The notes: generated by a model not told the origin, from the letters alone. Shown: positions 663 through 19,212, counted from the stretch's first letter. The stretch: DNA of 64,000 bases from an uncultured Gammaproteobacteria bacterium (GCA_964650355.1 CAZYTL010000002.1:6964-70963), one strand, 5' to 3'. Numbers and translations are program-made.

Positions 663-837
663 CTCTGAGTTTATCCGCATTTTCATCTGTGATCAGCCTG
701 CTCAGCTGGTGGATTTTTGATTTATCTTAACATATAATAGTGCGGCAGTCTTGGCATACTCCGTTCGCCGTAACTGATTGCATATTTGAGATATTGACTA
801 AAACAGATATAATAGGGGCCAGGAAATCAATTATTTA

Positions 838-1380
838 ATGAAAAGAGGGCGATACAAACGAGCTGAACAAAAAATAAAGCATCGGATTAATCAACAAATA
901 AGAGCTCCTGAGGTGCGACTGATAGGCCAAGATGGTAAACAGATCGGTCTGATGTCTGTGGCTGAGGCTTTGGCTAAGGCTAGAGAGGCCAATCTTGACT
1001 TGGTTGAGATTGCTCCTAAAGCCAAGCCTCCGGTAGTGAAGGTAATTGACTATAAGAAATTTCAATATTTGGAGTCTAAAAAGCTCAGCCAGCAAAAGAA
1101 ATCAGCCAAGAAGGGAGACTTGAAGGAAATCAGGCTCAGACCTTTTATGGCTGACGGAGATTATCAAGTGAAATTAAAACGAATTAAAGAGTTTTTGAAT
1201 GACGGGAATCAGGTGCGAGTTTCTGTGTATTTCAAAGGCAGAGAGCTCGCTCATAAATCCAAAGGGTATGAATTAGTTAGTCGGGCGTTAGCCGACTTAG
1301 GCGAAATTGCCAAGTTAGATCAACCCGCCAAGTTTGCAGGGAGAAATGTGATTGCCAATTTTTCTCCGAGTAAGAAATAG
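838..1380 (+). CDS. infC: Translation initiation factor IF-3
   Basis: 180 aa ORF with the IF-3 N- and C-domain signature (EVRLIGQDGKQIG..., LVEIAPKAKPPVVKVIDY). It lies in the conserved infC-rpmI-rplT arrangement. Confidence 0.9.
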   Translation: MKRGRYKRAEQKIKHRINQQIRAPEVRLIGQDGKQIGLMSVAEALAKAREANLDLVEIAPKAKPPVVKVIDYKKFQYLESKKLSQQKKSAKKGDLKEIRLRPFMADGDYQVKLKRIKEFLNDGNQVRVSVYFKGRELAHKSKGYELVSRALADLGEIAKLDQPAKFAGRNVIANFSPSKK

Positions 1381-1551
1381 ACAGAGGGAAAAACTGCCAG
1401 AGGAGTGCGGGGTTTTTCTTTACACAGACGGAATTTGGATGACTACGAATGTTAAGTCAACTTGCTATGGATTTGTGGGTAGTTTGTATATTATAATTGC
1501 AACCGTGGCTAAATATTAGCCGTTTCTATTTGTTTTATAATCTGTTGTTTT

Positions 1552-1746
1552 ATGAAGAAACTTAAAGTCCGTAAAGCTATTGCTAAAAGGTTTAAAATTA
1601 CTTCCACAGGAAAGGTGATTTCCCGGAGGGCTTTTCATAGCCATTTAAAGTTGAATAAATCCAAAAGCAGATTAAGAAGGATGAAAGTTCCTAATGAAAT
1701 TACCGGTAGGATGGCGACAAAGATCAAGAAAGCATTAGGAGCTTAG
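1552..1746 (+). CDS. rpmI: 50S ribosomal protein L35
   Basis: 64 aa highly basic protein ([22 protein letters not shown]...) located between infC and rplT. Confidence 0.9.
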
Positions 1747-1759
1747 TTAAAGACTAGAT

Positions 1760-2122
1760 ATGAGAGTAAAAAGTCAATCAGCTAAAAAGCACCGTAAGGT
1801 CCTCAAGATGGCCAAGGGCTACCGGATGTCCAGGAGCAAGCACTTCCGTACCGCCCAGGAGGCAGTATTGCACGCCGGTCAGCATGCCTATATTGGAAGA
1901 AAGCTAAGGAAGAGAGACAAGAGAAGAGAATGGATTACCCAAATCAATGCGGCTTTGACCCAGTTGGCCATGGAGAAAGAAGAAGCTAAATTGAAATACA
2001 GTGAATTTATTCATGGGTTGAAAAAGGCCAAGATTGAGGTTGACAGGAAAATTTTGGCCAAGTTGTCGATTGAAGATTTGGAAACGTTTAAGTTTATTGT
2101 GGAACAGGCGAAAGCGGCTTAA
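1760..2122 (+). CDS. rplT: 50S ribosomal protein L20
   Basis: 120 aa protein with a basic N-terminus (AKKHRKVLKMAKGYRMSRSKHFRTAQEAV) typical of L20. It is the third gene of the operon. Confidence 0.9.
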   Translation: MRVKSQSAKKHRKVLKMAKGYRMSRSKHFRTAQEAVLHAGQHAYIGRKLRKRDKRREWITQINAALTQLAMEKEEAKLKYSEFIHGLKKAKIEVDRKILAKLSIEDLETFKFIVEQAKAA

Positions 2123-2153
2123 TTTTAAGCCCCATCCAAACCTGTTCCAACCC

Positions 2154-2178
2154 AACCGCCAAAACAGGCGGTTTTTTG
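2154..2178 (+). terminator. Rho-independent terminator downstream of rplT
   Basis: A 7-bp stem (aaccgcc / ggcggtt) with a 6-nt loop, followed by TTTTTT. It lies between the rplT stop and the pheS start. Confidence 0.5.
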
Positions 2179-2185
2179 ATAGGAT

Positions 2186-3196
2186 ATGGATATGGATCAA
2201 CAATTGAATAATATAAAAAACGAGGCTCTGGCTCTGATATTGGAAGCGGAATCTCAGGAAGAGTTGGAGCAGGTAAGAGTGAGATACTTAAGCAAGAAAG
2301 GTAATTTGAATCAGGTATTTTCTGAATTAATGCGATCAGCAGAGGATAAAAAACAACTGGGACAGGTGTTTAATCAAACTAAACAGACTCTGTTGGAAGC
2401 ATTGGAAGACAAACAGGCTCAACTATCAACGATGCCTGATGATAGGGAATGGTTTGATGTGACCAAGATAACGGATGAGACAGCAATGGGAATGATGCAT
2501 CCGATTAATCTGATGATTAGAGAAATGAACCAGTTTTTCCGTTCCTATGGATTTTCGGTGATGGACGGACCGGAAATCGAAAGTGATGAGTACAATTTTC
2601 AGAGACTAAATCTGCCGCCTGATCACCCGGCCAGGGACTTGCAGGATACGCTTTATATTAAAGAACCGAATATTCTCTTGAGGACTCATACTTCTTCTGT
2701 GGAAACCAGAGTAGTGGCTAAATACAAACCACCTTTCCGGGTGGTGGTGCCCGGGAAGTCATACCGCTATGAAACCATGAACCCCTCAAATACAGTGATG
2801 TTTTTTCAATACCAGGGTTTCAATGTAGAAAGAAACATTTCGATGTCTAACTTGAAGTGGATTTTAGAAAAATTTGTGCATTATTTTTACGGTACTAAAC
2901 AGGAGATGAGGTTTCGTTGTAAGTACTATCCAGAAGTCGAACCCACAGCCGGATTGGATCTGGCTTGTTCGTTCTGTAACAAAAAGGGGTGTGCGGTGTG
3001 TAAATACCGCGGATGGTTGGAAATGATCGGTTGCGGCATGATGCATCCTAATATTATGAAAACTGCCGGCATAGATCCTCAAAAATGGTCGGGATTCGCT
3101 TGGGGTATGGGACTGGATCGCCTGGTGATGACGAAATTTAATATTCCTGACGTGCGAATGTTGACCAACGGATCGATTACCTATCCAAATACATAA
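2186..3196 (+). CDS. pheS: Phenylalanine--tRNA ligase alpha subunit
   Basis: 336 aa with a class II catalytic core (FRSYGFSVMDGPEIESDEYNF, motif 2/3 regions). It is followed directly by pheT. Confidence 0.9.
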   Translation: MDMDQQLNNIKNEALALILEAESQEELEQVRVRYLSKKGNLNQVFSELMRSAEDKKQLGQVFNQTKQTLLEALEDKQAQLSTMPDDREWFDVTKITDETAMGMMHPINLMIREMNQFFRSYGFSVMDGPEIESDEYNFQRLNLPPDHPARDLQDTLYIKEPNILLRTHTSSVETRVVAKYKPPFRVVVPGKSYRYETMNPSNTVMFFQYQGFNVERNISMSNLKWILEKFVHYFYGTKQEMRFRCKYYPEVEPTAGLDLACSFCNKKGCAVCKYRGWLEMIGCGMMHPNIMKTAGIDPQKWSGFAWGMGLDRLVMTKFNIPDVRMLTNGSITYPNT

Positions 3197-3203
3197 ATTT
3201 TAT

Positions 3204-5993
3204 ATGTTAGTCCCGCTTTCCTGGTTAAAACGGTATGTAGAAGTGCCCAAGAGGTTGTCTGAGTTGACGGATAAATTGACTTACGCCGGGCATATGCTGG
3301 ATAAGGTGCTGCAAGTTGATGGTGAGACAGTGATCGACTTGGAACTGAGAGGAAATCGTGAAGATTTATTCGGAATTCTAGGCATTGCCAGGGAAGTAGC
3401 AGCTTTGTTCGATGTGCCGATTAACCTCCCCCAGGAGCCTGACTTGAATAAAATCCCGCAATCGAATTCCGGCAAGAAGGTGAAAGTCGAAGTGCAGGAT
3501 ACTGAATTGATCAATCGGTTCTTTTCTATTGAAATTACTGATCTGAAAGTTGGTCCTTCGCCCAAATGGCTGGAGCAAATTTTAAAACAGATGAGCACTC
3601 CGGCTATCAATAACGTCGTGGATGTCACCAATTACATCATGTTTCTCACTGCCCAACCGTTACACGCTTTTGACAGAAATAAAATTAATCAGGGAAGATT
3701 AATTCTTCGTCAGGGCGACGGAAAGCTAAAGTTCACGACTTTCGAAGGCACCCAAGTGACAGCAACCAAACAAGATTTGATTGCTAGCGATCCGGAAAAA
3801 TGCTTGGGGTTATTAGGGGTAATTGGCGAGAAATACTCCGGAGTAGGCAAAGACACCACTGCGATTTTACTGGAAGGAGGTAATTATAATCAGCCGAGTG
3901 TAAGAAGATCTAGTCGAAGACATAAATTAAGAACAGACGCGGCCTTACGTCTAGAAAAAAATATTGATCCCCTGCTTCCACCATATGCAGTGAAATTGTG
4001 TACCGAGCTGATCTGTAAGCTGGCCCAGGGAAAGGTGGTGGCCGGAAGCGTGGGTGATTACGAGAAAAAAAAGCATCATAATCCGTGGAAAACGATTTTA
4101 TTCACTACTGATGAAGTCAAAAGATTGGGCAATATGCAAGTTTCCCAAGAGGAAGCAAGAAACATTTTCAAACGGTTGGATTTACCGTCCAAATTGATAG
4201 GTGCCAAAGTTGAAGTGCAAATTCCGTGGAGAAGGTCGGATATTGAGGGAGAAGCAGATCTGGTTGAGGAAGTTTTAAGGGTGATTGGCTACGAAAATAT
4301 CCCCAGCGAACCGATCAGCAACCCGGTACCCAAATCTATCGAACCACCGCATTTGCTGTTGGAAGAAAAGGTGAGAGATATCTTGGTCGGACAGGGATTT
4401 AAAGAGAATGTGAGCGATTCGTTCATCAGCCAAGATGACCAGGAATTGTTTTTCGGAAGTCAAAGTCAGGCAATTAAGATTGTTAATCCTACTTCACCGG
4501 AAACTGCTTTGCTGCGCACTTCCCTACTCCCCGCCCAAATAAAATTGGTACAGAAATTATTAAATTTGCACAAGCAAAATATTTCCTGGTTCGAGATCGG
4601 AAAGGTATATTGGGAGACAAAGCAGTCGGATTCTAAAAGTAACTATCAGGAAGAGATTCATTTGTCAGGAGCGATAGTGCTGGGAATAGACACGGAAAAA
4701 TTTTACGGTCGATCTCTGGCAAAAATGAGACGATTGTTAAATTATTTGGGGATTTGGGATTTGAAAGTTCAACCTCAAGCTGATCATTTGCTGATGAGCA
4801 AAGAAGGATCTACAAGTATTTATCAGCAGCAAAGATTGTTAGTCCAGATGGGTTTGTTGCGCACGGACGTAAAACAAGCACTGAATATCCAACCGGATGT
4901 TTTTTTGTTTGATGCTAAGATTGATGATTTATTAAAAGCAAAGACTGAACTGCCTAGAGTGCTAGAATCTGACTATCCTCCCGTCATTGAGGATCTGACG
5001 TTTATGCTGCCTTCGGAAACTTACATTCAACCGGTGATCGATGAGATTTATGGCGTGGATAAATTAATTAATAAAGTCGACTTAGTTGACAGTTATGAAG
5101 ATGCCCGGACCTTTAGGATTTATTACCAAAGCCGGAAAAAGAGTTTAAGCGATAACGAAGTGGAACCAATTCGGATGAGGATTGTGAAGGACTTGGAAGG
5201 GAAATTTAAAGCTAAGTTGAAAGGGGAAATTTTAACAGCTACAAGAAAAACAGAGCAGCAAACTACTCGCCCAAAATCAATAAAAGACAAGAAGGATATA
5301 AAAACGGAAGCAATATATTATTCCAATCCATATCAAAAAGAGCTTGAATGTAGTGTACTCGCTATAGAATCAAAAGGAAATTTGTTAAATGTTATTTTAG
5401 ATAAGACTGTTTTTTACCCACAAGGTGGCGGCCAGCCATCTGATCACGGAATGATTGGCAAAGCCAAAGTCAAACACGTATTAATGTCAAAAGGTCAAAT
5501 AATTCATCAAGTAAAAGGCGATCTAAACGTAGGAGATAAAGTAAAAGCGTTTTTAGACTGGGAACGTCGATATAAGTATATGAAAATTCACACGGCAGGT
5601 CATTTAATTCATGATGCTTTCATGACCATGGTCGAGGATTTAGTACCCATTAAGGCTGACCACGGTGACAATGCTTATCTTGAATATCAGGGCGAGTTAA
5701 AGGTCAATTTAAAATCTCAATTAGAAAGGTTAGTCGATCAATATATTAGTGATGATTTACCTGTAACGACAAAACAGACCACCTATGAAGATTTAGTGAA
5801 AGACTGTCCGTTTGTACCTCAAAACTTGCCTAAAGATAAACCACTTAGGGTGATTAAAATCAACAATTTCCCAACCATGCCAGATGGTGGTGTACATGTC
5901 AAAAGTACTCAAGAGATTGGGTCTGTGGTGATAGAAAGCATCTCCTCTTTTGACAACAAGACGGTGGTCAAATATCGTGTTTTAAATTCTTAG
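3204..5993 (+). CDS. pheT: Phenylalanine--tRNA ligase beta subunit with a C-terminal AlaX-M-like (tRNA_SAD) editing-domain extension
   Basis: 929 aa. The B3/B4 region (NNVVDVTNYIMFLTAQPLHAFD), the B5 region and the FDX-ACB-like region are recognisable. The last ~240 aa carry FYPQGGGQPSDHG, HTAGHLIH and DGGVHV motifs, as in AlaX/AlaRS/ThrRS editing domains. Confidence 0.85.
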   Translation: MLVPLSWLKRYVEVPKRLSELTDKLTYAGHMLDKVLQVDGETVIDLELRGNREDLFGILGIAREVAALFDVPINLPQEPDLNKIPQSNSGKKVKVEVQDTELINRFFSIEITDLKVGPSPKWLEQILKQMSTPAINNVVDVTNYIMFLTAQPLHAFDRNKINQGRLILRQGDGKLKFTTFEGTQVTATKQDLIASDPEKCLGLLGVIGEKYSGVGKDTTAILLEGGNYNQPSVRRSSRRHKLRTDAALRLEKNIDPLLPPYAVKLCTELICKLAQGKVVAGSVGDYEKKKHHNPWKTILFTTDEVKRLGNMQVSQEEARNIFKRLDLPSKLIGAKVEVQIPWRRSDIEGEADLVEEVLRVIGYENIPSEPISNPVPKSIEPPHLLLEEKVRDILVGQGFKENVSDSFISQDDQELFFGSQSQAIKIVNPTSPETALLRTSLLPAQIKLVQKLLNLHKQNISWFEIGKVYWETKQSDSKSNYQEEIHLSGAIVLGIDTEKFYGRSLAKMRRLLNYLGIWDLKVQPQADHLLMSKEGSTSIYQQQRLLVQMGLLRTDVKQALNIQPDVFLFDAKIDDLLKAKTELPRVLESDYPPVIEDLTFMLPSETYIQPVIDEIYGVDKLINKVDLVDSYEDARTFRIYYQSRKKSLSDNEVEPIRMRIVKDLEGKFKAKLKGEILTATRKTEQQTTRPKSIKDKKDIKTEAIYYSNPYQKELECSVLAIESKGNLLNVILDKTVFYPQGGGQPSDHGMIGKAKVKHVLMSKGQIIHQVKGDLNVGDKVKAFLDWERRYKYMKIHTAGHLIHDAFMTMVEDLVPIKADHGDNAYLEYQGELKVNLKSQLERLVDQYISDDLPVTTKQTTYEDLVKDCPFVPQNLPKDKPLRVIKINNFPTMPDGGVHVKSTQEIGSVVIESISSFDNKTVVKYRVLNS

Positions 5994-6016
5994 TTAAAAT
6001 TTATTCCTTTATCCCA

Positions 6017-6190
6017 TCTTTGATTTTGCCATCGTGGATGTGGATTTGGTGCTTGGTGCGTTTGGCAACTAAAGAACTATGAGTGACGACTATGTTAGAG
6101 CTCTGGTAATGGCGGTGCTTTGCTGTCCGTCCCCGGAGATTTTATTGGGATAAAATTTTTTTAGGTGGGCAATGCCAAACCGATCCTTGA
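6017..6190 (-). pseudogene. Degraded partial duplicate of the ABC ATPase gene at 7251..7946 (C-terminal and signature-motif segments with an internal deletion)
   Basis: 6017-6066 is identical to 7283-7332 (50/50 nt). 6100-6190 aligns with about 7470-7565 at roughly 85% identity. About 105 bp are missing between the two blocks. No intact ORF remains. Confidence 0.55.
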
Positions 6191-6211
6191 ACACACACCA
6201 TGCACATTTTT

Positions 6212-7198
6212 CTATGCTCGCGTTTGGACGACCTGGTAAAGAGGTACTTCAAATTCTTGCTCGGTTCTTCTAAGAATCGGGTTATCGATTGGAAATTGTT
6301 CACTTTGCTTTGGAGGAGTACTTAACCCTATCCCCCCTAACGCTAAATACCTATCAACGTATAATCCCAAATTAGGTTCGCCTTTTTTGGGAAAGTAATA
6401 AGGAGCAAGAATGTTGCTAGGCCATACTCCATTAGGCTGATCTCCTAGCTTAGATAAAAAATAATCAGTTGCTTCGCTAGCCATACCTTGCTCTGCTAAA
6501 GGTTGTGCCGGATCCCAGGCCGAAACAATAATTATCTCTACTTTTTGTTGCCAAGCATCCTTTATTGGCTGCCGCAGTAATCCAATTTGTTCTGGTCCGT
6601 TTAGCATATTGACACGGAAACCTCGGGTATAACTTTTTCCTCCCAAACCAATTTGCGGTGGCCAAGGAGCTTTGATCGTGGCTTCTGTATATCCTCCCAT
6701 TAAGCTCGTCCAAGGAATTGTTACTATGCCAAATGCTCCTGTCTCACCACTACCAGTAATTTTTGCGTGCTGAAATAATACTTCACCTTCCAAATCGATG
6801 GTTGGTTTATATATCGATGTCGAATGTTCCAGATCTTGAATACTAACTGGTAAAACTTGATTTTTATCATCATCTTCTCTAACTTTATCCTTTAATGAAC
6901 TTGGTCTCGCCCTGAGAGGTTGGGGTTCACCAATCAACTCTACATCACCTTTCTTAATCCATTCAGCAAATGGCCCAAGGCGAGTATCTAAATAGAGAGT
7001 AGGAGATCTCTCGACATCTCTTTCAGGTGCTACCCGGGAAGAAGCTAACTCTTGTGAGTCAGGTGTGGGTATTAGACGACCTAATGCAGCACCTGCAGCA
7101 AAGATAGTTCCTGTCCTTATTGCTTCAAGTAGTTGTCTCCTAGTAATTCCTAACCTTGTCTTTTCATCATCAGGAAGGGCATTTTCTGCTTCGGTCAT
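6212..7198 (-). CDS. Secreted protein of unknown function with a twin-arginine (Tat) signal peptide
   Basis: 328 aa. The N-terminus TRRQLLEAIRTGTIFAAGAALG matches the Tat consensus (RRxLL plus an h-region). No recognisable catalytic motifs. Confidence 0.6.
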   Translation of the reverse strand: MTEAENALPDDEKTRLGITRRQLLEAIRTGTIFAAGAALGRLIPTPDSQELASSRVAPERDVERSPTLYLDTRLGPFAEWIKKGDVELIGEPQPLRARPSSLKDKVREDDDKNQVLPVSIQDLEHSTSIYKPTIDLEGEVLFQHAKITGSGETGAFGIVTIPWTSLMGGYTEATIKAPWPPQIGLGGKSYTRGFRVNMLNGPEQIGLLRQPIKDAWQQKVEIIIVSAWDPAQPLAEQGMASEATDYFLSKLGDQPNGVWPSNILAPYYFPKKGEPNLGLYVDRYLALGGIGLSTPPKQSEQFPIDNPILRRTEQEFEVPLYQVVQTRA

Positions 7199-17418: not shown

Positions 17419-19212
17419 TTACGATGAAATCGGAGCGGAAATCATTTCTCTTGTTCCATGAAGCCTTCCCATGTGAGCTTCTTCAGAATCCGATGGAACT
17501 AGGATTCTGATTCCACCCATAAATTCTGCACTGCCTCTCACTAAAGAGAAAAATGCTCTGTCCATAACCGCAAAAGTTGCTCCATTAGTACTATCATTTA
17601 CAACGAGAGATTCTATTTCGGGTTGAATTAGGTAAGGTCCCCTTAAGGCCAACATCTCCTTCAGCCATGATATATTACTACGATCGAAAAGATTCATGGT
17701 TTTTTGGCCATAACCGCCAAATACACCTTGCAATGGCTTGACTCGAAAGGCAGATAATTGTGACAACCCACGAGAATTCATAAAATCATTAAAGGTTTTG
17801 GTTACAGAAATTTTCTCGCCTTCAACAGACGCAACAACATCGTTGACGGCATCAACTCGAAAGCCCATAGCCATTAAGGGTAAAGCAACTTTGCTATCTT
17901 TTAAACGTTTTGGGTCGCCAATTGGCCAACCGGGATCATCGATATTTAAGGTGAGGGCATTTTCCCTTATTATTCTCCTCAAATTTGGATCTACCAATAA
18001 TGGATTTTCTACCCCTACTGTTGGATCTTTTAATTTAGATATCGGATCGGACGGACGAACATATAAAAGGCAATTGCATTGCCCACTATCTTGTTCTAAG
18101 TGTTTAAGAAATTCATCCGGCCCCCATAAGTCGTTAAAACCAGATATCTGAAAGACTTCTTCAGAGGTCAGATCCTGAACTCCTACCTTACCGAACTCAG
18201 TCTCCCGCATGTCTTCAAGCTTTTCTCTAGTCGGAGCAAGCAATACGATTGGCTTTTGATGTTGGGCTCTGATGATATCAAGTTGTTCTCTAAATCTAGT
18301 GCCAAGTAGTCCTCCACCGCCTAGTGTTTCTATCAACCCATACATAGCAATTGAAGGTTCGAATTCGAATATCCTGTCGCGTAAAGTGTTTATTACGTCT
18401 TCAGCACCAGGAGCGCCTGCTCCGGTGAGTAACTCTTGTGATAAACCAGCTATATCGACCTGAAAGAAAGGCTCTGTAATGTGACCACCGGTCATCCTTA
18501 CACAATGCTGGTATGCTAGTTTATGTCCTTCGTTATTTCCTGGAACAAATTGGGAAAAAACCCGTGCGTGCTCTTCAACCAACCTACTCAAACCGTCAAT
18601 GACTTTTGGCGGAAATCTAATTTGATAGTCTGGAGCATATTCGAAAGGTCCTAAGGTAGAAGGGATATCCTCTCGAGTGATGACGTTTTCAAGTCTTATT
18701 TTCTCTCCTGGTCGCGGTTGTTCTGAAGCGTAAGAGAACATTCTTGTTTCAACTACCTCCCGTATTGACATGGCACTCAGACCGTCACCGTTTAGTGCGT
18801 TTTGGCCTATTGCATGTAACCCAAGGTGAATAAAATCAGCATCTACTAGATGGCGAACGACCCTACCTCGGACCAGTGAATGATCCCAACCATGTCTTCG
18901 TACATCCTGAAAAAGGCTATCTTGAACATTCTGTGGTGTTATTCCTGCCAAATTTTTAGTCTGCGTGTCTTCAATTCCCTTGTCTGGGGGAAGTGGAATT
19001 AATGAAGGATCTTGCAATGCCTGGTTAACTCGCAAGTCACCTACCCGATTTAAGTCTTCCAGACAAGCCACATGAATTCCATTTTGTGCAGCCCACAACA
19101 CAATACCCTGAAACCTTGCTATCTGAACAAGTTTTTTCGGGGTAAGGCCAATCCCATTATTCTCTGCTATGAATGGGGATATTAAATGGTTGAATTCTAG
19201 TTGTTTTTTCAT
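17419..19212 (-). CDS. Uncharacterised 597-aa protein, possibly a ligase-like enzyme. It is the first gene after a T-box leader.
   Basis: Long intact ORF. It has a glycine-rich segment (ETLGGGGLLG) and a C-terminal FRVKPLQGVFGGYGQ loop that weakly resembles an ATP-grasp nucleotide-binding loop. It has no aaRS (HIGH/KMSKS or class II), Mur-ligase or adenylation-domain motifs. Confidence 0.35.
   Translation of the reverse strand: MKKQLEFNHLISPFIAENNGIGLTPKKLVQIARFQGIVLWAAQNGIHVACLEDLNRVGDLRVNQALQDPSLIPLPPDKGIEDTQTKNLAGITPQNVQDSLFQDVRRHGWDHSLVRGRVVRHLVDADFIHLGLHAIGQNALNGDGLSAMSIREVVETRMFSYASEQPRPGEKIRLENVITREDIPSTLGPFEYAPDYQIRFPPKVIDGLSRLVEEHARVFSQFVPGNNEGHKLAYQHCVRMTGGHITEPFFQVDIAGLSQELLTGAGAPGAEDVINTLRDRIFEFEPSIAMYGLIETLGGGGLLGTRFREQLDIIRAQHQKPIVLLAPTREKLEDMRETEFGKVGVQDLTSEEVFQISGFNDLWGPDEFLKHLEQDSGQCNCLLYVRPSDPISKLKDPTVGVENPLLVDPNLRRIIRENALTLNIDDPGWPIGDPKRLKDSKVALPLMAMGFRVDAVNDVVASVEGEKISVTKTFNDFMNSRGLSQLSAFRVKPLQGVFGGYGQKTMNLFDRSNISWLKEMLALRGPYLIQPEIESLVVNDSTNGATFAVMDRAFFSLVRGSAEFMGGIRILVPSDSEEAHMGRLHGTREMISAPISS

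Follow-up and report, generated by a model that had tools for sequence, protein, structure and literature searches.

An AlaX-M-type editing domain at the C-terminus of PheT and the coupling of its aspartate variant to phenylalanyl-tRNA synthetase in Patescibacteria

Introduction

Why would the beta subunit of a phenylalanyl-tRNA synthetase (PheRS), which has an editing site of its own, end in a second editing domain of the AlaX family, and what would such a domain proofread? The question is raised by the pheT gene in a stretch of 64,000 nucleotides (nt) deposited as DNA of an uncultured Gammaproteobacteria bacterium (GCA_964650355.1, CAZYTL010000002.1:6964-70963; the whole stretch is called the window here, and positions are counted from its first letter). 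Editing domains of the alanyl- and threonyl-tRNA synthetase (AlaRS/ThrRS) fold have been thought to serve only these two enzymes or to act as free-standing AlaX proteins. Indeed, the fold is listed for AlaRS and ThrRS only in a survey (PMC11580382) and in AARS Online. A large uncultivated bacterial group, the Patescibacteria, to whose type the bacterium of the window belongs, instead puts a variant of the domain that lacks the cysteine, often together with the fourth ligand, on PheRS, either on one of its two subunits or in an adjacent gene. Both the fold and the concept of a fused editing domain are already known. As far as we found, PheRS as the host synthetase, the aspartate active-site variant and the wide spread of the association across Patescibacteria are new.

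Results

A PheT with a complete AlaX-M-type domain

The window gene joins a bona fide PheT, with its B3/4, B5, catalytic-like (CLM) and FDX-ACB domains, to a complete AlaX-M-type domain. The parts of the open reading frame (ORF) are the following.

3204..5993, + strand, stop codon included: pheT-alaX fusion ORF, a single open frame of 929 amino acids (aa)
3513..4025, + strand, residues 104-274: B3/4 editing domain (B3_4) of PheT (Pfam, E 2.1e-44)
4098..4913, + strand, residues 299-570: B5 and CLM domains of PheT (Pfam)
4968..5222, + strand, residues 589-673: FDX-ACB (B8) anticodon-binding domain, the usual end of PheT (PF03147, E 1.6e-11)
5298..5558, + strand: AlaX-M N-terminal beta-barrel subdomain (PF01411 profile positions 448-552; strands of the AlphaFold2 (AF2) model)
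5412..5450, + strand, residues 737-749: Gly-rich motif FYPQGGGQPSDHG (direct sequence reading; invariant across the family alignment)
5559..5990, + strand: AlaX editing core, tRNA_SAD superfamily (Pfam, NCBIfam and PDB matches, AF2, Foldseek)
5589..5603, + strand: HTAGH (HxxxH), H796-H800 (direct sequence reading)
5883..5897, + strand: DGGVH, D894-H898 (direct reading), Asp894 replacing the catalytic or Zn-ligand Cys of CxGxH

In the PheT part, Pfam places B5 at residues 299-363 (PF03484, E 8.8e-15) and CLM at residues 366-570 (PF17759, E 3.8e-26), and the NCBIfam model pheT_bact (TIGR00472) scores 429.5 bits, above its equivalog cut-off of 402.65. The N-terminal B2 oligonucleotide/oligosaccharide-binding (OB) fold (tRNA_bind) is absent. 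The TIGR00472 match begins at profile position 148, residue 41 of the window protein aligns with residue 153 of the Thermus thermophilus protein, and B2 is likewise missing in related Microgenomates PheTs.

The original prediction, made from the sequence of the window, placed an AlaX-M-like extension after the FDX-ACB domain, and Pfam, NCBIfam, PDB matches and the AF2 model agree with it. Residues 687-788 match the C-terminal portion of PF01411, the AlaRS model (E 2.6e-12), and residues 881-915 match tRNA_SAD (PF07973) at 25.5 bits, where the cut-off is 24; the similarity to tRNA_SAD/AlaX domains on which the prediction was staked is thus present. The AlaXM model NF040865 gives E 7.5e-44 and 150 bits, half of its equivalog cut-off of 300, a score that marks the domain as a homologue and not as an equivalog. 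The closest PDB sequence matches of the tail include AlaX-M 9iuw (E 5.8e-22) and 2e1b (E 1.2e-21), and the AlaX-like 3kew. For residues 699-929, the AF2 model reaches a predicted local distance difference test (pLDDT) score of 94.3 and a predicted template-modelling (pTM) score of 0.91. Its superposition on AlaX-M had been set beforehand as a test, and Foldseek matched the two-subdomain fold, with template-modelling (TM) scores of 0.79-0.89 to AlaX-M and AlaRS editing domains. The full-length AF2 model (pTM 0.53, with pLDDT below 50 at residues 474-637) is uninformative on how the domains dock.

The Gly-rich, HTAGH and DGGVH motifs can be read directly from the sequence at the places where they had been reported. 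The first of these, a beta-barrel motif, is the criterion that separates AlaX-M and AlaX-L from AlaX-S. The reported exchange in the zinc-site motif also stands, with DGGVH (Asp894) where the family has CxGxH. The window copy retains 28 of the 28 invariant family positions.

The junction and the origin of the fusion

The transition from PheT to AlaX is defined by three features.

5223..5226, + strand: GGGG run at the junction (site of the in-silico deletion of one G)
5229..5297, + strand: linker ILTATRKTEQQTTRPKSIKDKKD, about 22-23 aa (alignment with unfused PheT and free AlaX)
5298..5300, + strand: ATA (Ile699), at the ATG start position of free-standing homologues (MKTKQIYY in these, IKTEAIYY in the window)

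Related unfused PheTs, with C-termini reading ...KLKGQA* or ...KLK*, end at a position aligned with window residue ~676 (...KLKGE-I676), and free AlaX proteins start at residue 699. The extension is therefore composed of a linker of about 22 aa and a complete 231-aa domain. In-silico deletion of one G from 5223-5226 gives AAA GGG AAA TTT TAA, that is ...KLKGKF followed by a stop, and a PheT of normal length. Since the removal of one G restores the normal PheT stop, a single-base insertion would explain the fusion; beyond the extra G, a further change did away with the alaX ATG. The linker is hydrophilic, has a GC content of 0.35 and is predicted to be disordered (pLDDT below 50 at residues 680-691 of the full-length model), and it is probably the former intergenic spacer. 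We propose that an alaX gene came to sit about 60 nt downstream of pheT, that an extra G in the G-run would then have abolished the pheT stop and brought both genes into frame, and that the superfluous alaX ATG may later have decayed to ATA. The AlaX part (5298-5990) has a GC content of 0.365 and a third-position GC content (GC3) of 0.32, compared to a GC3 of 0.45 in the PheT part and of 0.43 +/- 0.06 in 21 other ORFs of the window. The lower GC3 of the AlaX part is a weak hint that it arrived at the locus relatively recently.

The same run of four G, whose shortening restores the PheT end, also invites a different account, in which the true sequence is GGG at 5223-5225, pheT stops at the TAA and alaX is a separate gene, or in which the frameshift is real but recent and neutral. 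The possibility that an artefact joins two genes had been raised with the original prediction, and it has further points in its favor: this exact fusion is found in one population, the second assembly that contains it may share the sample, and the GC3 difference suggests recent arrival. The weight of the evidence is on the other side. The Logan assembly of SRR14802573, built separately, matches the window at 100% identity across 5240 nt (807..6046) that include the junction, so two assemblies agree base for base, and the NCBI gene call on the identical sequence (P0385, on a 174-kb contig) is likewise a product of 929 aa. An error would leave behind an alaX with all of its 28 invariant residues intact and with no start codon other than ATA, and in other lineages, with contigs of up to 335 kb from several sources, the architecture has become fixed. 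For these reasons an assembly or sequencing artefact appears highly unlikely and is largely rejected, the G4 run leaving a small doubt, and we regard the account as a whole, neutral frameshift included, as very improbable. Judged from the sequence, pheT-alaX is a genuine gene fusion.

Two further routes by which the two parts could be related were considered and set aside. Separate translation of AlaX from an internal start finds no usable start before the domain: there is no in-frame ATG, GTG or TTG between 5229 and 5381, the next ones (TTG at 5382 and ATG at 5451) both lie within the domain, and an AAGGA sequence is only 1 nt upstream of the ATA. The linker also contains no terminator-like site on the + strand. 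Read-through between conserved neighbors does not fit the nearest PheT relatives (51-52% identity), which have ftsZ or a NUDIX gene downstream and not alaX.

The aspartate variant of AlaX-M

We compared 145 Asp-type with 50 Cys-type AlaX sequences. The Gly-rich motif, His768, Arg789, HxxxH, His820, Arg882 and Tyr924 are common to both types. The consistent differences of the Asp-type are the conversion of Cys to Asp at position 894, that of Phe to Gly at position 821, and a relaxed fourth ligand, His898 being kept in only 54% of the Asp-type sequences and otherwise replaced by Gln, Ile or Leu. The Asp at 894 is fixed across the 145 related sequences, and the window copy is without the Cys of CxGxH. 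The exchange is the hallmark of a whole large AlaX-M subfamily and is not private to the window.

The HXXXH and CXGXH motifs have been called invariant across the fold and the Cys catalytically important, with Zn being dispensable for activity but shielding the Cys from H2O2 (PMC12003907). In human AlaX, the C209A mutation abolishes activity (PMC11260482). The Asp site suggests an active site that is independent of Cys and possibly of Zn. Given that Asp is not oxidizable in the manner of Cys and that the fourth ligand is often lost, the site may no longer need the metal.

A further difference concerns the position 27 residues after the Cys, which is Arg or Lys in 46 of the 50 Cys-type AlaX-M sequences, Val921 in the window and variable among the Asp-type. 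Arg693 of E. coli AlaRS is the determinant for G3:U70 (PMC11260482). The spacing is the same as that from Cys666 to Arg693 in E. coli AlaRS, an equivalence that derives from spacing and alignment and not from a tRNA-bound structure. Val921 is consistent with a lost specificity for tRNA(Ala).

Coupling of AlaX to PheRS in Patescibacteria

A scan of GTDB, one genome per species, with the AlaX-domain alignment returned 80 loci, for which the partners in the AlaX frame and the positions of PheS and PheT were assigned by script. In 14 of these, AlaX forms the N-terminus of PheS (an ORF of ~600-625 aa), with pheT as the next gene; L021 is one more such locus with a partial copy. The 14 comprise loci of Amesbacteria (L017), Gottesmanbacteria (L018, L026), Paceibacterota (L027) and Dojkabacteria (L032), and further L014, L016, L019, L020, L022-L024, L050 and L051. 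In three loci (L015 from Roizmanbacteria, L066 and L013), pheS-pheT is immediately preceded by a separate alaX, and in L089 (Woesearchaeota) alaX comes after a pheS-like gene. The PheT-AlaX fusion occurs in a single locus, L025. Apart from AlaX-L-like frames of ~400 aa, the domain was joined to no ORF other than PheS or PheT in the 80 loci, whose flanks were not screened for alaS or thrS.

An independent search with the L018 AlaX-PheS fusion gave the same picture for its best 120 clusters at 90% identity, which reach down to 50% identity to the query. At least 118 of them have ~570-670 aa and carry PF01411 and PF01409, mostly with PF02912 too, and the remaining two are shorter and have no PF01411 match. 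The AlaX-PheS proteins are annotated in their sources only as 'phenylalanine--tRNA ligase subunit alpha', and a literature search found no description of an AlaX-PheRS fusion.

The AlaX copies fused to PheRS are all of the Asp-type, the motif in AlaX-PheS being DGGxQ (12 cases), DGGxH (1) or DGGxL (1) and that in the PheT-AlaX fusions DGGxH or DGGxQ. The Cys-type, CGGxH, is fused in none of 18 and adjacent in one (L066). The Asp-type AlaX-M subfamily is hence repeatedly and specifically coupled to PheRS in Patescibacteria. The coupling has three interchangeable modes, namely N-terminal fusion to PheS, which is common, an adjacent alaX upstream, and C-terminal fusion to PheT, which is rare. The window represents the rare topology of this common association. 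That the same partner is reached by three modes argues that the job of the module is tied to PheRS and not to AlaRS alone.

Many of the metagenome-assembled genomes (MAGs) with typical Patescibacterial AlaX-PheS/PheT loci, among them those of L016, L019, L024, L025 and L050, are TPA records titled 'uncultured Gammaproteobacteria/Pseudomonadales bacterium', taxonomic labels that look unreliable.

Independent PheT-AlaX fusions

A word-indexed search of 5.8 billion proteins was performed with the window protein and, with the best 120 matches taken, with its tail alone. No protein other than the identical Logan copy combined the two halves, and the next PheTs, at 51-52% identity, were unfused. The best 120 matches of the tail were free-standing without exception (149-287 aa, mostly ~230-240 aa), none above 62% identity; those with a named source came from Roizman-, Gottesman- and Dojkabacteria, Microgenomates and one Micrarchaeota archaeon. 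HMMER, run exhaustively against 1.84 billion cluster representatives, retrieved further PheT-AlaX proteins. These are P0241 (851 aa), P0246 (854 aa, on a 51-kb NCBI contig, the fusion of locus L025), P0324 with its 838-aa cluster mate P0386 from Candidatus Shapirobacteria, and P0255 (1089 aa), in which PheT is followed by tRNA_bind and then by AlaX. The 335-kb contig of P0386 is present in NCBI, JGI, Logan and ENA. The survey of relatives that had been proposed therefore has a twofold outcome: the nearest PheTs are unfused, yet the architecture recurs.

In a neighbor-joining tree of the AlaX domains, the PheT-AlaX copies occupy at least three separate places among free-standing relatives. The window copy lies among free-standing DGGVH proteins, P0255 lies among DGGTQ proteins, and P0241, P0324 and P0246 form a group of their own. 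The PheT parts differ as well, with or without FDX-ACB and tRNA_bind. From the scattered tree positions and the differing PheT parts we conclude that the PheT-AlaX architecture has arisen independently in at least three lineages.

The C-terminus of PheT appears prone to the acquisition of extra modules. In the Patescibacterial PheTs P0243, P0249, P0259 and P0255, the tRNA_bind OB fold is C-terminal instead of occupying the N-terminal B2 position, and in P0249 (1033 aa) a hydrolase of the HAD family follows the C-terminal tRNA_bind.

The resident editing site of PheT

PheT had been predicted to carry a B3/B4 site of its own besides the appended module, and the Pfam B3_4 match at residues 104-274 bears this out. 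We mapped the window PheT on the T. thermophilus structure 1b70_B, with the key residues taken from Yadavalli and Ibba (PMC3553970; E. coli numbering R244, H265, G318, E334, T354 and A356). Five of the six are found in the window, as H154 (QPLHAFD), G208 (GVIGEKYS), E224, T244 and A246. At the R244 position the window has Pro133, a residue shared there with other Microgenomates PheTs, and at the G319 position it has Glu. The site looks largely intact, and a replacement of a degenerate B3/B4 by AlaX in the window protein is not supported, five of the six residues being present.

The AlaX-PheS clade differs at one of these residues. Glu334, which recognizes Tyr, is part of the Tyr-editing site of PheT (PMC3553970). 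It is lost in all 18 PheTs from genomes with AlaX-PheS or an upstream adjacent alaX, where it is replaced by Phe, Leu, Trp, Gln or Asp. Of the 264 related PheTs that serve as background, 240 have retained it. These counts are not phylogenetically independent. The other B3/B4 motifs are kept in the 18 proteins. A replacement of B3/B4 by AlaX in this clade, as read from the sequences, is plausible.

Of the 264 related PheTs, only 110 have Arg at the position of E. coli Arg244, the editing-site residue that makes contact with C75, and Glu334 is converted to His (8) or Phe (7) in subsets. The editing competence of PheRS may, by these residues, vary widely in the group.

Discussion

Proposed function and its alternatives

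Our best reading, to which we give an even chance, is the prediction, drawn from sequence and structure models, that the appended domain is an active tethered aminoacyl-tRNA deacylase and an extra proofreading site of PheRS. In the proposed mechanism, the (alpha-beta)2 PheRS would hold the deacylase, on a flexible tether of ~22 residues, beside the tRNA that it binds and releases. Because PheRS would keep the module beside its tRNA, the module could serve as a second site of post-transfer proofreading for aminoacyl-tRNAs that are made at PheRS or pass it, with the native B3/B4 remaining in place. A bolder form of this proposal, which we consider possible but doubtful, is that the Asp-variant is a dedicated PheRS (possibly aromatic-synthetase-wide) proofreader, independent of Cys and possibly of Zn, that hydrolyzes mischarged tRNA(Phe) and has taken over or extended the role of B3/B4 in much of Patescibacteria. 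Its candidate substrates would be, as examples, Tyr-, meta-Tyr (m-Tyr)-, beta-hydroxy- or D-aminoacyl-tRNA(Phe).

A number of observations weigh against a proofreader for PheRS. As the lineages are related to one another, fewer events are independent than the counts would imply, and this exact fusion is known from one population only. The nearest free-standing relatives of the window domain (60% identity) are in trpS/tRNA-Trp operons and not with pheST. Since the window B3/B4 keeps five of six residues, Glu334 among them, there is no obvious editing gap to fill. Glu334 is retained in 5 of 5 PheT-AlaX fusions, and the covariation with AlaX consequently holds for the PheS-linked clade and not for the PheT-AlaX topology. 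Nor does loss of Glu334 always imply an AlaX-linked PheS, as P0279, P0299 and P0266, all without Glu334, have an unfused PheS. Arg is retained at position 921 in 9 of the 14 AlaX-PheS fusions. Besides the conversion of Cys to Asp, Gly821 and the relaxed His898, the conserved residues are those of canonical AlaX-M, and these retained residues hint at a pocket for a small residue (Ser or Gly), which PheRS is not known to misactivate.

The main rival is a reading in which a generic AlaX has been placed on the PheRS scaffold, where it would hydrolyze Ser-/Gly-tRNA(Ala), perhaps also Ser-tRNA(Thr), in trans, the fusion serving co-expression, stability or tRNA proximity in a streamlined genome. It accords with the nearly identical conserved residues of the Asp-type and the Cys-type, with the largely intact B3/B4 of the window, and with the action of all characterized AlaX enzymes on Ser-/Gly-charged tRNAs (PMC11295145, PMC11260482). 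Relatives that add B3/4 and two YbaK-like domains to a Trp-type synthetase beside alaX likewise look like a pooling of editing modules. What this reading leaves unaccounted for is that PheRS is repeatedly the partner, by either subunit or by adjacency, that the linkage to PheRS covaries with the loss of Glu334, and that the putative G3:U70-reading Arg is Val921 in the window. We rate it as unlikely, though with real weight. The domain could also be a non-catalytic appendage that binds tRNA(Phe) and offsets the missing B2 OB fold. The window PheT is without B2/tRNA_bind, P0243, P0249, P0259 and P0255 have a tRNA_bind OB fold at the same C-terminal position, the catalytically important Cys is absent, many members of the subfamily have Gln, Ile or Leu in place of the fourth Zn ligand, and the AlaX-like domain of apicomplexan tryptophanyl-tRNA synthetase (TrpRS) offers a precedent (PMC3680381). 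Yet HxxxH, the Gly-rich motif, His768, Arg789, His820, Arg882 and Asp-Gly-Gly are invariant in the 145 sequences, which span distant phyla and include free copies; the Plasmodium domain lost all four ligands, which the window domain did not; and the nearest unfused PheTs, P0122 and P0123, are without both B2 and AlaX. With the residues of the catalytic site so well kept, a non-catalytic role is the less likely one, and we hold it to be improbable.

Comparison with known systems

The window domain shares with AlaX-M (P. horikoshii PH0108, PDB 2E1B; P. furiosus 9IUW) the two-subdomain fold (TM 0.78-0.79), the length of ~230 aa, the Gly-rich motif, HxxxH and the conserved His, Arg and Tyr positions. 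It differs in the Asp that replaces the Cys of CxGxH, in Val for Arg at the Cys+27 position, and in being fused in frame to PheT without a start codon of its own, where AlaX-M is free-standing. The cis-editing domains of AlaRS and ThrRS (Edit-AT/tRNA_SAD) belong to the same superfamily and are likewise covalently attached to a class II synthetase, the TM score to the editing domain of P. horikoshii AlaRS being up to 0.89 (Foldseek). In the window, the host is PheRS, and the Cys called invariant (PMC12003907) is replaced.

The AlaX-PheS fusions of Gottesmanbacteria, Amesbacteria, Dojkabacteria and other Patescibacteria are the closest parallel, with an Asp-type AlaX-M on PheRS. They carry it at the N-terminus of alpha, whereas the window carries it at the C-terminus of beta, and the AlaX domains are only ~40% identical. 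The AlaX-PheS motif is mostly DGGTQ, with the fourth ligand lost, and the partner PheT is without Glu334, which the window PheT keeps. The AXD of apicomplexan TrpRS (PMC3680381) is another AlaX-family domain on an aromatic synthetase that is neither AlaRS nor ThrRS. It is AlaX-S-like and N-terminal, has lost all four Zn/catalytic ligands and has been proposed to bind tRNA only, whereas almost all of the conserved residues remain in the window domain. The B3/B4 of PheRS resembles the appended AlaX in being a post-transfer editing site in the same polypeptide. Its fold is unrelated, it is specific for Tyr-/m-Tyr-tRNA(Phe), and it is the canonical proofreader of PheRS. BesG and AlfB are cases of the AlaX scaffold retargeted to other mischarged tRNAs (PMC13149037); unlike the window domain, they are free-standing, are located in biosynthetic gene clusters of secondary metabolism and have no link to PheRS.

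Were the dedicated PheRS proofreader to hold true, PheRS would be the third synthetase to host the AlaRS/ThrRS editing fold, and the fold would have a new catalytic variant. A module that edits PheRS products would add to the known cis-editing architectures and would be a natural instance in which one editing domain complements or replaces a different one of the same synthetase. It would also provide a natural test of the idea that Zn shields the catalytic Cys from oxidation, a shield that Asp does not need. If the module is still an editor of tRNA(Ala), it would represent a bacterial case of editing factors that are physically pooled on another synthetase.

Gene neighborhood and related loci

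The fusion ORF, which encodes the housekeeping beta subunit of PheRS, directly follows pheS, in the operon order infC-rpmI-rplT-pheS-pheT.

2186..3196, + strand: pheS, 336 aa, unfused PheRS alpha subunit with an N-terminal coiled coil and without an AlaX domain (ORF list)

PF02912 and PF01409 match the pheS copy of the identical Logan contig. The 64-kb window contains no alaS and no tRNA genes, and no tRNA-Phe was found in the 44 related loci scanned. A 597-aa ORF at window 17419-19212 (- strand) matches no Pfam family at E <= 1e-4.

The AlaX protein P0005, which is 60% identical to the window AlaX domain, is encoded in the loci L001 and L002 (ENA ERZ24794672 and ERZ24794676), and it is from this locus that the nearest free relatives are assigned to trpS operons. 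Positions 2162-6693 comprise, in this order, two tRNA-Trp genes, a 379-aa ORF without a Pfam match, an archaeal-like TrpRS (389 aa), a fusion of a YbaK-like domain with TrpRS (495 aa) and, 3 nt downstream of it, the alaX gene of P0005.

A related arrangement is found in Candidatus Dojkabacteria STE_192 (L011, JAQVGX010000019.1, positions 2182-5989). There, an ORF of 924 aa joins a PheT-type B3/4 domain and two YbaK-like tRNA_edit domains to a class Ib (Trp/Tyr-type) synthetase core. An Asp-type alaX lies 30 nt downstream of it, and tRNA-Trp(cca) genes flank the pair. The L011 synthetase carries three different editing domains.

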